64,000 nucleotides of DNA from a virus (IMGVR_UViG_3300027963_004416:32001-96000); one strand, 5' to 3'. Shown: positions 43,777-49,851, counted from the stretch's first letter. Notes: a model not told the origin generated them from the letters alone. Made by a program: numbers and translations.

Positions 43777-43848
43777 ATGTGGACAAAGCCAATTGCTCAA
43801 GACAAGCGTTTCGGGTTTGAAGTCACGATGTATATTGCATCGCGATAA
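43777..43848 (+). CDS. pqqA: Pyrroloquinoline quinone precursor peptide PqqA
   Basis: MWTKPIAQDKRFGFEVTMYIASR: MWxxP start and R-x-G-x-E-x-x-x-Y core; AAGGAG RBS; not in the ORF track. Confidence 0.92.
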   Translation: MWTKPIAQDKRFGFEVTMYIASR

Positions 43849-43899: not shown

Positions 43900-43921
43900 A
43901 GACCGCTAGCGGTCTTTTTTT
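43900..43921 (+). terminator. Rho-independent terminator after pqqA
   Basis: AGACCG-CTAG-CGGTCT followed by a T-run. Confidence 0.8.
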
Positions 43922-43973
43922 ATAGTTGATTTTTATTTAGCCTAACATATATAATGTCTTGTAGGAAAGAGTC

Positions 43974-44153
43974 ATGATTATCTGTGTTTGTAGAGAAATT
44001 TCGGATAACGATTATTCTTCTGACGAGGAACTTAAAAATCGTATCATGCAGAATGATTTTAAATGTGGTATTTGTCAGACTAAATATATTATGAACGATG
44101 AGCTTTTATCTGTACAACCAGAAGCTTATCAAAAGAATTGCTGTATGAAGTAG
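43974..44153 (+). CDS. Bfd-like [2Fe-2S] ferredoxin
   Basis: MIICVC...CGIC (CxC...CxxC); AGGA RBS; TTGATT-18-TATAAT promoter at 43926. Confidence 0.65.
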   Translation: MIICVCREISDNDYSSDEELKNRIMQNDFKCGICQTKYIMNDELLSVQPEAYQKNCCMK

Positions 44154-44444
44154 AAGGAAAGGTGTTCTGGACGCGAGTTCGATTCTCGCCATCTCCACCA
44201 TAAGCGTATTGCCTGGTATGAGTGCCTATAGGCTTAATCAGAGTCCAATAAGTAATACGCTTATGATGGGGATGTCAAGGTTTCGACAGGGCAATGAGTA
44301 CAGATATGGACAGCACGTCAGGCGATCGACGTTAATGAAGCAGAACTAGTAAACGCAAACGATAGCGATTACAACATGGCTCTTGCTGCCTAACAGCTAA
44401 GACCGGAGTCTTGATAGTTGAACTTGGCAACAGAATCAACTATC
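44140..44444 (+). ncRNA. ssrA: Permuted two-piece tmRNA
   Basis: Acceptor piece with T-arm GCGAG-TTCGATT-CTCGC and CATCTCC-A-CCA (ends 44200) precedes coding piece GGGGATG (44268; G3.U pair); tag ANDSDYNMALAA* at 44355-44393; intervening hairpin 44199-44265; 5' boundary approximate. Confidence 0.93.
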
Positions 44445-44468
44445 ATTTATTTCTATGAGGCTAAAAAT

Positions 44469-44756
44469 ATGACAAAAGACGAGATTTATAATCTAATTAT
44501 AGTAACAATGAAGAAGGATTATGATATCGATATTAGCGGCATGCCTGCCAATACACCTATATCTACTATTAAGGAGATGGCTCCAAAGCTAGACTCGTTG
44601 GAATATCTTCAGTTTATTTTTGGTATGGAAGACAAGACGGGCATTGAATTACCTGAAGGCAGCCCGGTGCCAGAGACAATAGGAGATATTTTAGATGCTT
44701 TTGTCACAGCTTTGGGAAATAGACTTAATATATCAGTTAATTATAAGATGGATTAA
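44469..44756 (+). CDS. Acyl carrier protein
   Basis: LDSLEYLQFIFGMEDKTGIELP with phosphopantetheine Ser; TIGDI C-terminal helix; GAGG RBS. Confidence 0.85.
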   Translation: MTKDEIYNLIIVTMKKDYDIDISGMPANTPISTIKEMAPKLDSLEYLQFIFGMEDKTGIELPEGSPVPETIGDILDAFVTALGNRLNISVNYKMD

Positions 44757-44759
44757 GAA

Positions 44760-45497
44760 GTGATTTTAAAATCACATCCATTTACTAATCGGTTTGTTAG
44801 CTTAGCAAATATTATTATTGCTTTAGTGGGAACATTTTTCATAGTTCCCAGTATTAAAATACTTATTTTATCATTATTTTTATTTTTTATTTTATTCTGG
44901 TTTGGTCATAATATAGGGCAGCATAGGTATCTATCACACGAATACTTTTCTCTTAGCAGACCAGTGCATTATGTCATAGTTTATCTAGCAAATGCAGTTG
45001 GGTATGGCTCGGCATTTGGCTGGGCTACCTTTCATCGCAATCATCATCTAACTAGTGATACGGGAAAAGATCCGTATCACTTTGATAGCCCCTTGAAAGC
45101 TTTTTTAAACATTACTAATTATGATCATATAAGGTATTTTAGAAGTAAGCTCTTAGGTGATCGTTTTGTAGTTTTTACACATAAATACTATCATCCATTT
45201 TTGATAGTTAATAGTATAGTACTGTTTTTAATAAGTCCTGTTCTATGGATCTCGTACCACTACTCGGTCATTATGTGTTATTTTGCATTTATCTGGACCG
45301 CAGTCTTTTCTCACAAAAAGACAATATTTTCATATAAGAACTTCGACGGCCCGGCTTATAACGATTTTATATACGGCTACATTTTAGGTGATTGGCACAA
45401 TAACCACCATACCAACCCACATATTCAGAATCAAAAAGTAAAATGGTGGGAATTTGATATAATCGATTTTTTTATTAGGAAAATTAAAAGTGTATAA
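44760..45497 (+). CDS. Membrane fatty-acid desaturase 1 (delta-9/DesC-like fold)
   Basis: His boxes HRYLSH, HRNHH, WHNNHH; WWEFD; TM segments. Confidence 0.9.
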   Translation: MILKSHPFTNRFVSLANIIIALVGTFFIVPSIKILILSLFLFFILFWFGHNIGQHRYLSHEYFSLSRPVHYVIVYLANAVGYGSAFGWATFHRNHHLTSDTGKDPYHFDSPLKAFLNITNYDHIRYFRSKLLGDRFVVFTHKYYHPFLIVNSIVLFLISPVLWISYHYSVIMCYFAFIWTAVFSHKKTIFSYKNFDGPAYNDFIYGYILGDWHNNHHTNPHIQNQKVKWWEFDIIDFFIRKIKSV

Positions 45498-46263
45498 ATG
45501 GCCTTTAGATTTTATTTTTAAGTCTCGCGATCACTTACAAAAATATATTATTACAATGCAATTCGTGCTCGCAGTTGTCGCATTTAGCACGTATGGGGCA
45601 AATGCATGGTTTATAAGTTTAAGTTTTCTATGGTACCTTGTAATGCTACATGTAGGACACAACGCAGGGCTTCATAGATACTTCTCGCACAGCTCATACA
45701 AACTATCGAAGCCCTGGCATATCTTTATTACGTTCATTTCTACACTAGTGGCGTTCGGCTCACCGCTTGGATACGCTATAATTCACAAAACCCATCATCG
45801 CTACTCAGATACCCCTGATGATCCACATCAACCTAAAAAACCCGTAAAGACTTTTTTCTTCATGTTTAATTCAAGTGATGAAAAAATATCACCGCTTTAC
45901 GCGAGAGGTCTTAGAGACTACTGGATAAGCTTTACTCATAGCTACTACTTACTAATACTTGTCACTTTTTATATTGCGTTATTGGCTATAGATCCAATAG
46001 TTGCGCTTTCCTATAACGTAGGAATTTGTGGAATTTTACTTGGAACAGGGTGGGTTAATGTTGTGAATCATACTAGTAATTTTCTTTCGTATAGAAATTT
46101 TCAAACTAAAGATAAATCAAACAACGATTTAGTAGCAGGGTATTTACTAGGCGAATGGCATAACAATCACCACGCTAATCCGACGTCTTATACTCAAAAA
46201 GTAAAATGGTGGGAACTAGATATACCTACATTTATTATAAAGTCTATAAAGAATGAAGATTAA
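45490..46263 (+). CDS. Membrane fatty-acid desaturase 2
   Basis: HRYFSH, HKTHH.YSDT..DPH, GEWHNNHH, WWELD. Confidence 0.92.
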   Translation: MYKWPLDFIFKSRDHLQKYIITMQFVLAVVAFSTYGANAWFISLSFLWYLVMLHVGHNAGLHRYFSHSSYKLSKPWHIFITFISTLVAFGSPLGYAIIHKTHHRYSDTPDDPHQPKKPVKTFFFMFNSSDEKISPLYARGLRDYWISFTHSYYLLILVTFYIALLAIDPIVALSYNVGICGILLGTGWVNVVNHTSNFLSYRNFQTKDKSNNDLVAGYLLGEWHNNHHANPTSYTQKVKWWELDIPTFIIKSIKNED

Positions 46264-46984
46264 AAGATATATTTTATTTCTAGGAATTTTTCTTACCGGG
46301 CTTTATTTTTTAATTGACTCTGTTATAAATGACAGCCCCATTAATTACTATTTGTTAACATTTCTAGTTTACATACAGATCGTCTTTAATCAATTAGTAC
46401 TTCATAGAATTTTTAGCCACCGCGCTTTTAAAATATCCTGGTATCTTAGAGATATTTTCTGTTGCTTTACACTTTTAAGTATGTTTAGTTCTTCAAGAAC
46501 CTACATTGCAATGCATAGATTACATCACAGATATACAGATACCGAACTAGATCTGCACGGACCACACCAGGGGTTCTTTACTCTTATAGATATGCATATC
46601 GTTGACTCTAAGCTTATAGGTAAGATTGACAAGAATGAATCAAGAATAGAAACATTCATTAACACATACTACTATGAGCTTACATATGGCACTATATTTT
46701 TATCCTTGTTAATTAACACCGTTTTCTTTAAATACTTAATTCTTAGTGTAATGTTTAATTATATCTGTATTGATGTATTTAATTATTTTTCACATAAAAA
46801 AACACCGTTTAACTATAGAAACTACGACACCTTAAATAACTCTCACAATAATTTATTTTTAGGTATATTTGGTGGTGACTGGCATAATAATCACCATGCC
46901 TTCCCTAACGAGCCTAATCAAAGAAAACGCTGGTGGGAATTCGATCCGATATTCTATTTTGGTAAAGTATTAGAAAAGATATGA
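46253..46984 (+). CDS. Membrane fatty-acid desaturase 3
   Basis: HRIFSH, HRLHH.YTDT..DLH, WHNNHH, WWEFD. Confidence 0.92.
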   Translation: MKIKRYILFLGIFLTGLYFLIDSVINDSPINYYLLTFLVYIQIVFNQLVLHRIFSHRAFKISWYLRDIFCCFTLLSMFSSSRTYIAMHRLHHRYTDTELDLHGPHQGFFTLIDMHIVDSKLIGKIDKNESRIETFINTYYYELTYGTIFLSLLINTVFFKYLILSVMFNYICIDVFNYFSHKKTPFNYRNYDTLNNSHNNLFLGIFGGDWHNNHHAFPNEPNQRKRWWEFDPIFYFGKVLEKI

Positions 46985-48159
46985 GAAGAGTAGTTATAAC
47001 AGGCGCCGGCGCGATAACACCTATAGGTGGTGATTTAGATACAATAGAACACAGGCTATACAATAGTATTTCAGGTCTAAAATGGAACGATAGCCATAAT
47101 ACCGTGAGCGGCTCGGTAGATGAAAATATTGACTCTATGTTCTCATCATCAGATACAAATCTTACGGATAAAGTAACTAAACTCTCCTGGATTTCCTATG
47201 AGAGGGCCCGTGATGATTCAGGTATAGTACCTGAAGGTATATTTTATGGAGTAGGGTTTGGCGGAGCCCTTACAGTGGAAGAATGCTATAGTAATATTTC
47301 TAACGGTAAGAAAATTAACCCTATCTCCATTATTAAAGCGATGCCCAATCAGGGTGCAAGCTATATTTCTTTGAGAGAAAAAATCACCGGGCCGTGCATC
47401 TCATATACCACAGCGTGCTCATCGTCCGCCGTAGCATTAGGAGAGGCATATTTAAGAATAAAGAGTGGTGCTTTAAAAAACGCCGTAGCAGTTGGCTCGG
47501 AATGCTTAAATACCAAACTTAACGCCAGCTGGTGGCGCGGTATAGGCGCAATTAATGAAGATAAGGAATATAGTTTTAATGCGGTTAGACCATATTCAGC
47601 AGATAGAAAAGGGACAGCCATATCAGAAGGATCAGTATCATTAATCTTAGAAGATTTAGAATACGCTTTATCCCGTAAAGCCAAAATATACTGTGAGATT
47701 ACGGGGTATGGCTTATCTACAGGGACAGAAACATTTACCAAGCCCTGCAGGTCTTCCCAAGCACGAGTAATAAAAGAATGCTTAAAAGATTTAAATACTA
47801 AAGATATATCTTATATTAATAGTCATGGTACAGGGACCCCGGTAGGTGACTTAATAGAACTTCAAGCTATAGAAGAAGTATTCGGCAAAGAAGTAGTAAA
47901 TATACCTATCTCTTCAACTAAATCCCTCACTGGCCATCTATTGGGTGCAGCTGGTACCTTTGAAACTCTAGCTTGTATTTTTGTTATAAAAAATAATAGA
48001 ATTATACAAAATAACTTTATTAATGGGTTAGATGCAGATATAAGTAGTAATATATTCTTACCTACCATACCTGTGTTTAACCCTATTAATACTGTACTAA
48101 ATAATTCCTTTGCATTCGGTGGTACTAATGTATGTCTTGGATTAACAAAATGGAAATAA
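46981..48159 (+). CDS. Beta-ketoacyl-ACP synthase (FabF/NodE-like)
   Basis: RVVITG; catalytic TACSSS, HGTGT and KSLTGHLLGAAG; NSFAFGG. Confidence 0.95.
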   Translation: MRRVVITGAGAITPIGGDLDTIEHRLYNSISGLKWNDSHNTVSGSVDENIDSMFSSSDTNLTDKVTKLSWISYERARDDSGIVPEGIFYGVGFGGALTVEECYSNISNGKKINPISIIKAMPNQGASYISLREKITGPCISYTTACSSSAVALGEAYLRIKSGALKNAVAVGSECLNTKLNASWWRGIGAINEDKEYSFNAVRPYSADRKGTAISEGSVSLILEDLEYALSRKAKIYCEITGYGLSTGTETFTKPCRSSQARVIKECLKDLNTKDISYINSHGTGTPVGDLIELQAIEEVFGKEVVNIPISSTKSLTGHLLGAAGTFETLACIFVIKNNRIIQNNFINGLDADISSNIFLPTIPVFNPINTVLNNSFAFGGTNVCLGLTKWK

Positions 48160-48764
48160 GACCTAGAAAGTTTAGCTTTAAATTAACAAAATACTGGTTT
48201 GATAATAATAAATTTAAAACTTTTTTTTGGAATGCTAATTCATTATTATTTGAGCAAAATGAATACATCTTCTGCAGACTTCTAAGTTTTTACAAAAAGA
48301 AAGTTAAAGACAAAACATTATTAGCTGAAATAGATATTTTATTCGGACAAGAAAGCTGGCATAGTTATAATCATAAAGCATTTAATGAACAATTATCATT
48401 AAACTACGATATAAGCTCTATTCAAAATAAAGCAAAAAGGCTAGCCGGGCGCGTTCTTATCTTAAAAAATAGTGATAAGCTATCGTATGCAGTTTGCTTT
48501 GAAGCTATGATAGTTAGAGTATGTAAGCTTTTACTAAAGGAAAAATTTACAAATACTGACCCTGAAATCAAAAACTTCTGGCTTTGGCATACTCAAGAAG
48601 AAATAGAACACGGCTATATTGCACGTAAACTATACAGATATTTTAAGTTTTCAAGATTACTAAATATAATACACATGCTCAAGCTTCTTATACTATACAT
48701 TGACTTTATAGTTTTTTCTTTAAAAGAATTTTACTTACAGGATAGACGACATGCAATTATCTAA
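48150..48764 (+). CDS. Predicted metal-dependent hydrolase family protein (COG3687-type), ferritin-like diiron motifs
   Basis: IRPRK..F....W...T.F.NA.S.LF; QESWH...H; FE; WLWHTQEEIEH. Confidence 0.75.
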   Translation: MEIRPRKFSFKLTKYWFDNNKFKTFFWNANSLLFEQNEYIFCRLLSFYKKKVKDKTLLAEIDILFGQESWHSYNHKAFNEQLSLNYDISSIQNKAKRLAGRVLILKNSDKLSYAVCFEAMIVRVCKLLLKEKFTNTDPEIKNFWLWHTQEEIEHGYIARKLYRYFKFSRLLNIIHMLKLLILYIDFIVFSLKEFYLQDRRHAII

Positions 48765-49218
48765 AAACTTTACCTTAGAAGAATTTACCAAGAGCGACAC
48801 AGCAACAAAGAAGGGTATTGATAATACCCCTCAGGGTGTCCATATGGAAAACTTAAAGAACTTAGTAGAAAAGGTTGTGCAACCTGTTCGAGAGCATTAC
48901 GGGAAGCCCGTAAAGGTAAACTCAGGGTATAGAGGTGCTAAGCTTAATGAAGCTGTAGGTGGCGCTGCAACAAGCCAGCATTGCAACGGTGAAGCGTGTG
49001 ATATTGAAGTCCCCGGCATTCCAAATGCTGATTTAGCTGCTTACATTAGAGATAACTTACCCTTTGACCAGCTTATTCTCGAATTTTATACACCAGGTAT
49101 TCCAGACTCAGGGTGGGTGCATGTTTCACTCAAGAAAGACGGCCCACAACGTAAGCAATGCCTTACAGCACTTAAAGAAGGCGGCAAGACCGTTTACAAG
49201 CCAGGATTTTTAGCATAA
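48751..49218 (+). CDS. Peptidase M15A endolysin
   Basis: LSKNFTLEE, NSGYR, SQH..GEACD, WVHVS; ACTAAATA late site at 48659. Confidence 0.9.
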   Translation: MQLSKNFTLEEFTKSDTATKKGIDNTPQGVHMENLKNLVEKVVQPVREHYGKPVKVNSGYRGAKLNEAVGGAATSQHCNGEACDIEVPGIPNADLAAYIRDNLPFDQLILEFYTPGIPDSGWVHVSLKKDGPQRKQCLTALKEGGKTVYKPGFLA

Positions 49219-49851
49219 TTGTTTACTGTAATTAAAGTTCATGTAGATAGTAACCCTACCTGCAGCGAAACAGTAAATGCCGGTCTTTTAAGCAAAGAGA
49301 GTGTTAAATACTTTGATAAAGACGGCTTTGAGCTTACCCCTTTAGAGCAAGCTTACTACTGCGCTGCAGGATATCAGAATAAGATTGGTAACGGGTGCTT
49401 ATACCATACCTGCTGGCAAGAACCCTGGTTTGATATAAGCAAGGAAGATCCATTTTTTATAGATCACACTATGATACTACATAGATGTGATTTTACTGAT
49501 GAAGCTGCAATACAACTACACAAGTATCAAAAAAGACTCCCACAACTTAACTATCTTATTAATTGTAAGAAGAAATGGGGGTTAGATTTTAGTTTAGATT
49601 ATTTAAATCATGATGATGATAGAGTGTATGAAATAGTTCATATAGAACAAGATTCAAACTCATATGAACACTTTATCAACCTTAAAGGTCAGTTTGAAGA
49701 ATTTGTTATATCCACTGACTGGAACCACGCAGCTAAGGTACTACTTAAAGAGAAGCACCGTTGGCTACCTCTCGAAGGAATGGCTCGTAATGACTGGAAA
49801 GCTAAGTTTTTTGGCTATGGTCAGGCTGAGAGTACCATCAAGTCAGTATAA
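49219..49851 (+). CDS. Hypothetical protein
   Basis: 210-aa ORF with TTG start. Confidence 0.7.
   Translation: MFTVIKVHVDSNPTCSETVNAGLLSKESVKYFDKDGFELTPLEQAYYCAAGYQNKIGNGCLYHTCWQEPWFDISKEDPFFIDHTMILHRCDFTDEAAIQLHKYQKRLPQLNYLINCKKKWGLDFSLDYLNHDDDRVYEIVHIEQDSNSYEHFINLKGQFEEFVISTDWNHAAKVLLKEKHRWLPLEGMARNDWKAKFFGYGQAESTIKSV

Follow-up and report, generated by a model that had tools for sequence, protein, structure and literature searches.

A six-gene cassette of a T4-like freshwater phage with a probable role in forming unusual unsaturated fatty chains during infection

We analysed a 64,000-nucleotide stretch of viral DNA (hereafter the window), which spans bases 32001-96000 of the 145.7-kb IMG/VR virus record IMGVR_UViG_3300027963_004416 (estimated completeness 85%). 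We found that six same-strand open reading frames (ORFs) at 44469-48764 (4.3 kb) form a genuine, intact phage module under purifying selection. The cassette encodes an acyl carrier protein (ACP), three membrane desaturases (Des1, Des2 and Des3), a ketosynthase (KS) and a di-iron protein of family PF10118, and its probable role in infected cells is the synthesis of unusual unsaturated fatty chains. Set against related uncultured phages, in which it is conserved, the cassette represents a virus-specific ACP-desaturase-KS core in expanded form. The record is that of a T4-like freshwater myophage, as the initial annotation of this DNA had proposed for the carrier: the genes for gp33 (the late-transcription coactivator), gp59 and gp32 lie directly downstream of the six-gene block, and the large subunit of ribonucleotide reductase (RNR), a primase, a baseplate tube cap and a tail protein were found elsewhere in the window. 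The six genes are as follows.

44469..44756, plus strand: ACP, 95 aa, with a KLDSL phosphopantetheine serine and weak NCBIfam ACP matches
44760..45497, plus strand: Des1, membrane desaturase, 245 aa, GTG start, NCBIfam DesA match (8e-7)
45490..46263, plus strand: Des2, membrane desaturase, 257 aa, PF00487 match (8e-12)
46253..46984, plus strand: Des3, membrane desaturase, 243 aa, PF00487 match (1.5e-13)
46981..48159, plus strand: KS, predicted elongating FabF/FabB-like ketosynthase, 392 aa, PF00109 and PF02801 matches
48150..48764, plus strand: PF10118 di-iron protein, 204 aa, 119.9 bits

The block is bounded by a permuted transfer-messenger RNA (tmRNA) upstream and an M15 endolysin gene downstream, and its tight packing agrees with the first description of the locus as six co-directional genes behind the tmRNA, the last of which overlaps the endolysin. 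The ACP and Des1 genes are separated by 3 nt, the subsequent junctions overlap by 8, 11, 4 and 10 nt, and the final gene runs 14 nt into the M15 peptidase gene. A GAGG ribosome-binding site lies 8 nt 5′ of the ACP start. For the final gene, a start at 48132 had been assumed; a start at 48150 is likelier, since the resulting MEIRP N-terminus is conserved in homologues. No convincing promoter or terminator was identified inside the block, and the gene packing by itself thus suggests that the six genes are probably co-transcribed. The nearest sigma-70-like site (43926-43955) lies 5′ of the tmRNA, and such sites were no more numerous than in shuffled sequence. The GC content of the block is 33.8%, compared with 38.8% for the window, which places it in the lowest 1% of 4.3-kb windows, and the correlation of relative synonymous codon usage between the block and the other phage genes was r = 0.84, compared with 0.94 for a control split. 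The block is therefore AT-richer than its surroundings, as had been noted and as expected for a mobile phage module, but the difference is modest.

The initial annotation had pointed to synteny in viral metagenomes as a check, and assemblies made independently of each other were found to contain the whole cassette between the same phage genes. In L023/L024 (from ENA and Logan) and in L025, which comes from a different sample, the ACP, three desaturases, KS and PF10118 genes are followed by a shared flank of M15 peptidase, a 210-aa protein, a SleB-like hydrolase, gp33, a methyltransferase, gp59 and gp32. In L123, which comes from another sample and is cut at its 5′ end, three or more desaturases precede KS, PF10118 and the shared flank, and partial copies were identified in L026, L027 and L122. 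These relatives derive from different samples and assemblers. A gene for a 2-oxoglutarate (2OG)-Fe(II) oxygenase lies directly 5′ of the cassette in L023 and L025. About 20 IMG/VR contigs carry the desaturase clade, and eight of them, representing five distinct contexts (L002, L007-L010, L011, L012 and L015), have an overlapping triad of ACP, a Des2-type desaturase and KS among phage genes. The order and number of the desaturases vary among the relatives (Des3′-Des1′-Des2′ in L023 and L025, four in L027, a single one in the triad-only phages), and the three desaturase orthogroups are retained despite the permuted order and a copy number of 1 to 4. When the KS was compared with that of L122 (94% identity), the dN/dS was 0.098, while the 3′ end of Des3 encoded a protein 100% identical to that of L122 with 9% synonymous differences; dN/dS values at 55-75% identity were saturated and were left out. 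The PF10118 gene of L122 (1483-2100), by contrast, is only 38% identical to that at 48150-48764, with a sharp boundary at the KS/PF10118 junction, indicating that this gene was exchanged by recombination, yet retained.

The three desaturases are SCD1-type (delta-9-type SCD1/DesC/OLE1) membrane di-iron enzymes. Des2 and Des3 passed the FA_desaturase model PF00487 (E about 1e-12); Des1 had no Pfam match but is clearly homologous, with 36% identity to Des2. Nine histidines (HX4H, HX2HH, a lone N-x3-H and HX2HH) are invariant in all 22 aligned phage desaturases and correspond to the SCD1 ligand set, so all three enzymes keep every His box, as read at the outset. Des2 matched SCD1 at the sequence level (4.5e-13), and its AlphaFold2 (AF2) model, with a predicted local distance difference test (pLDDT) value of 92, gave SCD1 as the leading Foldseek match (TM-score 0.73, E 5e-8), far ahead of other matches. 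When reference sequences were included in a tree, every desaturase linked to a cassette fell within a single clade made up of viruses only (support 95), and DesC and the acyl-CoA desaturases lay outside it. Within it, the Des1, Des2 and Des3 orthogroups had supports (SH-aLRT) of 100, 100 and 98, respectively; L023, L025 and L027 contribute members to the Des1 orthogroup, and L023 and L025 to that of Des3, while the Des2 type is the one always linked to ACP and KS in other phages. The virus-only clade also stood apart from five Burkholderia/Ralstonia desaturases of ligase-ACP clusters, which branched with DesC and acyl-CoA desaturases and were the sequences that represented such clusters in the tree. 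The Burkholderia gladioli BSR3 plasmids bgla_4p and bgla_1p (L035 and L037) each carry a cluster in which desaturases and an ACP accompany an acyl-AMP ligase, and one of the two clusters also has a polyketide synthase, a P450 and a hydrolase; both served only as sources of reference desaturases. Using an alignment of 11 sequences, we scanned one genome for each of 185,579 species, and the best cellular desaturase was 32% identical. Neither an ACP nor a PF10118 gene was found beside the best 80 cellular desaturase loci, one of which (L045) had a distant KS-like match (25% identity) about 2 kb off.

The KS matched both ketosynthase domains, PF00109 and PF02801. Its score against TIGR03150 fabF (277.2 bits) is below the curated cutoff of 493.75, and it is therefore a divergent member of the FabF family and not an orthologue; the closest solved relatives were FabB (7pps, 2e-55) and FabF. 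Cys146, His282, Lys314, His319 and the gating Phe379 are invariant in 10 phage KS proteins (41-94% identity), which leaves intact the Cys-His-His triad (Cys146, His282 and His319) recognised earlier, and these features identify the protein, from its sequence, as an elongating (decarboxylating) FabF/FabB-type ketosynthase. KS identity was 47-94% within phages, compared with at most 38% in cells (best cellular KS 38%). Scanning IMG/VR with the KS protein alone gave no match, the KS relatives having been reached via desaturase loci, and INPHARED contained no phage with the cassette, its KS matches being host-like FabB/FabF proteins in contaminated or prophage records. In the small ACP, the serine of the K-(L/V/I)-D-S-(L/M) motif is invariant in eight of eight phage homologues, and the acidic residues of helix II are likewise invariant in these eight.

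The pairing of ACP and KS had initially been likened to NodF/NodE, a dedicated ACP and FabF-like KS which borrow host type II fatty acid synthesis (FAS II) and give an unusual polyunsaturated chain. The phage cassette shares with NodF/NodE the dedicated carrier and the dedicated FabF-like KS; unlike the cassette, NodFE forms double bonds without desaturases. In a search of plasmids, nothing marked the phage KS as nearer to the NodE-bearing plasmids of rhizobia than to ordinary FabF: the top plasmid matches were ordinary FabF proteins of 31-33% identity, and rhizobial records matched but ranked lower.

By its ligand pattern and modelled fold, the product of the last gene is a ferritin-like di-iron oxidase that is misnamed 'metal-dependent hydrolase'. 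It scored 119.9 bits against PF10118 (Metal_hydrol), for which the gathering threshold is 33.2. E38, E68xxH71, E118 and E151xxH154 are invariant across 73 family sequences, including the two ExxH motifs on which the di-iron assignment had first been made, and these E/ExxH/E/ExxH ligands, together with the fold, contradict the hydrolase label. The AF2 model (pLDDT 96) gave VIA-align Z-scores of 14.3 with CmlI, 14.1 with RNR R2, 13.8 with AurF and 12.3 with R2lox, which are modest evidence on their own, the fold being a helical bundle. Atlas TM-scores were 0.89 for PF10118, 0.76 for FA_desaturase_2 and 0.71 for AurF, and one PF10118 member gave a weak Pfam match to AurF. A profile search of solved structures with PF10118 gave no match, and the Foldseek matches were weak. 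AurF/CmlI, R2lox and the soluble acyl-ACP desaturases share the ligand set and the helical-bundle fold with the phage protein, which differs from them in being shorter (204 aa) and only about 10-13% identical. No solved or characterised member of PF10118 was found, and nothing about function was found in the literature on PF10118 and COG3687. The phage-type clade is small: only 4 clusters below 1e-30 were present in 1.8 billion representatives.

Several further observations concern PF10118 genes elsewhere. In T4-like phage contigs with gp59 and gp33 nearby (L030:8001-8774 and L031), a lone 257-aa PF10118 gene lies beside phoH, an arrangement seen in 23 contigs, and PF10118 may be a wider phage auxiliary gene. 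Another phage, which carries genes for S-adenosylmethionine synthetase, DHFR and ThyA, has at L028:8587-11370 a NeuD-like hexapeptide transferase, a desaturase, a PF10118 gene and a second desaturase, and neither ACP nor KS. Bacterial PF10118 proteins (P0131, P0143 and P0163) are fused to an alpha/beta hydrolase, a GH15 glycosidase or a class I methyltransferase with a weak CMAS match. A 236-aa ORF 3′ of the KS in L002 was considered and is not a PF10118 relative.

The likeliest function of the cassette, to which we give an even chance, is an ACP-linked multi-desaturation pathway dependent on host FAS II; the grounds are the way in which the genes are linked, the intactness of their active sites and thiotemplated desaturation as a precedent (PMC9828172). 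Sequence and fold establish only that the proteins are catalytically competent, and the steps that follow are all inferred. Host AcpS would activate the phage ACP and host FabD would malonylate it. The phage KS would condense a host-made acyl chain with malonyl-phage-ACP, and host FabG, FabZ and FabI would complete the cycle; by this condensation the growing chain would be moved onto the private carrier of the phage, and such loading could stand in for the acyl-AMP ligase of bacterial ACP-desaturase (JamABC-type) cassettes. The three SCD1-type desaturases, each of a separately conserved type, would insert double bonds using O2, and the PF10118 oxidase would add a further O2-dependent step, either desaturation or hydroxylation. 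Since neither a thioesterase nor an acyltransferase is encoded, the simplest fate of the modified acyl-ACP would be use by acyltransferases of the host, with a change in the lipids of the cell under infection.

The dependence on host AcpS and FAS II, which was part of the original proposal along with the lack of a ligase, a phosphopantetheinyl transferase (PPTase) and a thioesterase, is supported by searches of the whole 145.7-kb record. No PF00501 AMP-binding ligase was identified at E<=0.01, and none was seen in the cassettes of the relatives; no PF00975 thioesterase was present in the record and no alpha/beta hydrolase in the cassette; no PF00301 rubredoxin was found in the record at E<=1, and no PlsC acyltransferase. 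Neither PF01648 nor an AcpS-like protein of L002 matched anything in the 85%-complete record. Two other contigs bear on the linkage of the parts: AcpS-like genes of 97-113 aa (L002:1391-1732 and L016:8711-9001) directly adjoin their desaturase cassettes. The products are 46% identical to each other, and the L002 protein gives weak holo-ACP synthase matches (TIGR00556, 4.5e-6).

A number of points weigh against an ACP-linked pathway. Genes for a PPTase and a loading enzyme are lacking in the 85%-complete record, as are those for a reductase, a dehydratase and a release enzyme. For the ACP, the NCBIfam matches are weak (5e-4), with scores far below the curated ACP cutoffs. Desaturases of the SCD1/DesC type normally act on acyl-CoA or lipid-bound chains, so their use of acyl-ACP is suggested by gene linkage only. 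Outside the eight triad contigs, those of the desaturase clade carry between one and three desaturases, with no KS in the DNA fetched, some of these contigs being short or cut, indicating that the desaturases can work without the carrier and the KS. The PF10118 identity of 38% between otherwise near-identical cassettes indicates that the role of this protein may be loosely coupled to the rest. A complex prediction for Des2 and ACP scored 0.03 and, being made without controls, weighs neither for nor against binding.

The strongest rival to the ACP-linked pathway, which we consider possible but rather doubtful, is that the six are loosely assembled membrane-fluidity and lipid-supply genes: the substrates of the desaturases would be acyl-CoA or the phospholipids of the host, as is the case for DesC and SCD, ACP and KS would sustain host FAS II after shut-off, and the di-iron protein would have an unrelated redox role. 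The His boxes and the fold are those of delta-9 acyl-CoA and acyl-lipid desaturases, over half of the viral contigs of the clade show desaturases without ACP or KS in the fetched DNA, PF10118 stands as a lone gene in another T4-like phage, and single viral desaturases are known as fluidity genes (cyanophage viral fatty acid desaturases (vFADs), PMC5776448; Baikal Nitrospirota viruses, PMC7678222). However, in no fewer than six different phage contexts the genes for ACP, the Des2-type desaturase and KS lie next to each other and overlap, at 40-57% identity, three separately kept desaturase orthogroups are hard to square with simple delta-9 fluidity control, and PF10118 sits between desaturases in the second architecture, that of L028. 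Private ACPs, moreover, are typical of dedicated pathways. A bolder proposal takes the opposite direction, namely that three cooperating desaturases of a virus-specific lineage, together with PF10118, work on a private ACP and yield a fatty acid which no cell produces, be it polyunsaturated, acetylenic or oxygenated, and which would serve as a signal, toxin or envelope modifier and not for fluidity adjustment; we regard it as unlikely, and if true it would give the PF10118 family its first function. It is also conceivable, at a low probability, that the modified acyl-ACP is passed to a specific acceptor, such as lipid A/lipopolysaccharide (LPS) or a lipoprotein, and the envelope is remodelled, for example for superinfection exclusion or lysis timing. 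The cassette lies directly 5′ of two cell-wall hydrolases (the M15 peptidase and the SleB-like protein), sugar-nucleotide and LPS-type genes are present elsewhere in the window, and no thioesterase is encoded, so that acyl-ACP itself would have to be the donor. On the other hand, the record encodes no acyltransferase, the closeness to lysis genes may reflect only a hypervariable region, and the L028 hexapeptide transferase, considered as an LpxA/LpxD candidate, was rejected because it is a NeuD/PglB-type sugar acetyltransferase.

Membership in a polyyne or terminal-alkyne pathway, the analogy drawn at first, is not supported and has a slimmer chance still. The product would then be a polyyne or terminal-alkyne fatty acid acting as a toxin, signal or anti-grazer compound, as for cay/pgn/ccn or JamABC. 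The polyyne clusters (cay, pgn, ccn and col) and JamABC share with the phage cassette a dedicated ACP and several delta-9-like membrane desaturases; their chemistry is thiotemplated, with three desaturases acting together, and provides the precedent for membrane desaturation of this kind (PMC9828172, PMC8406139). The ACP and three membrane desaturases of the phage match the 'designated desaturase triad' on a carrier protein (PMC9828172), and its desaturases and the five Burkholderia/Ralstonia ligase-ACP desaturases belong to the same broad delta-9-like family. However, the bacterial polyyne core comprises seven genes, including a ligase (JamA homologue), a thioesterase, a rubredoxin and a JamB-clade desaturase (PMC8406139), and ligase, thioesterase and rubredoxin, three of the seven, are missing here. 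Unlike polyyne clusters, the phage cassette has a KS, its desaturases lie outside the branch of the bacterial ligase-ACP-cluster enzymes, and desaturase number ranges from 1 to 4 among its relatives. That the block arose by chimeric assembly, from contaminating host DNA or as a host operon captured recently and now in decay, dangers of the kind that the initial annotation had itself named, has in its favour the raised AT content relative to the rest of the window, and we consider these explanations practically negligible: the same cassette stands between phage genes in independent assemblies, no cellular relative exceeds 38% identity, and all frames and catalytic residues are intact, with a KS dN/dS of 0.10.

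The initial annotation knew of no described phage system with this composition. This is right only in part. Of the triple desaturase set with PF10118 we found no description; part of the combination has been listed before: fabF, stearoyl-CoA desaturase and 2OG oxygenase are given as unique genes of the freshwater pelagimyophages PMP-D (Zaragoza-Solas et al. 2020, PMC7029224), in one annotation sentence that names neither ACP, PF10118 nor a cassette. The cassette relatives L023 and L025 likewise have a 2OG-Fe(II) oxygenase gene upstream; the three conserved desaturase types and the PF10118 di-iron oxidase set the phage cassette apart from that gene list and are what is new here. In the literature, we found no description of a fixed set of three desaturase types with a PF10118 oxidase, or of a virus-only ancestry of all the parts. 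Viral desaturases have been published as single genes, in cyanophages (vFAD, PMC5776448) and in Baikal Nitrospirota viruses (PMC7678222), and both are described as close to host genes. Like those of the cassette, these enzymes and that of Pelagibacter phage Mosig (again a single gene, 26% identical and elsewhere in our tree) are phage-borne, delta-9-type and regarded as lipid auxiliary genes; the cassette differs in having three paralogues of a virus-only clade linked to ACP, KS and a di-iron oxidase.

Until now, the lipid genes of phages have been seen as fluidity helpers that come singly and from the host. The cassette points instead to a multi-enzyme, carrier-protein-based lipid pathway that evolved within phages without a close cellular counterpart; its hallmarks are clades confined to viruses, desaturases gained and lost as modules, and a di-iron gene swapped by recombination. 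With six genes in 4.3 kb, it is a small and directly testable system for a new lipid product; it could reveal whether SCD1-type desaturases use acyl-ACP and could help to assign a function to the PF10118 family.

The features that adjoin the cassette are listed below.

43777-43848, plus strand: pqqA, stand-alone gene of 23 codons, PF08042 35.3 bits (cutoff 21.1)
43974-44153, plus strand: 59-codon ORF with a CxC...CxxC pattern, rejected as a ferredoxin
44108-44484 (ARAGORN) or 44091-44445 (Rfam), plus strand: permuted two-piece tmRNA, directly 5′ of the cassette
48751-49218: M15 peptidase (endolysin), overlapped by the last cassette gene
49219-49851, plus strand: 210-aa protein without a family, between the M15 peptidase and the SleB-like hydrolase

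The ORF at 43974 had been annotated as a ferredoxin. It has no Pfam match at E<=10, overlaps the 5′ end of the tmRNA and is absent beside the cassettes of the relatives; it is not a recognisable ferredoxin. The protein between the two cell-wall hydrolases had no match in an Atlas search; its counterparts in L023 and L025 are 64-70% identical, and L123 has a 210-aa gene at the same position. The tmRNA, whose tag sequence is ANDSDYNMALAA, matched the Rfam models tmRNA_permuted (141 bits) and beta_tmRNA (108 bits, gathering score 84). These matches suggest a betaproteobacterial host. A terminator-like hairpin (43900-43915) lies by the stand-alone pqqA gene, near which pqqB-E were not seen, and the presence of pqqA hints at a host that uses pyrroloquinoline quinone (PQQ) and is possibly methylotrophic.

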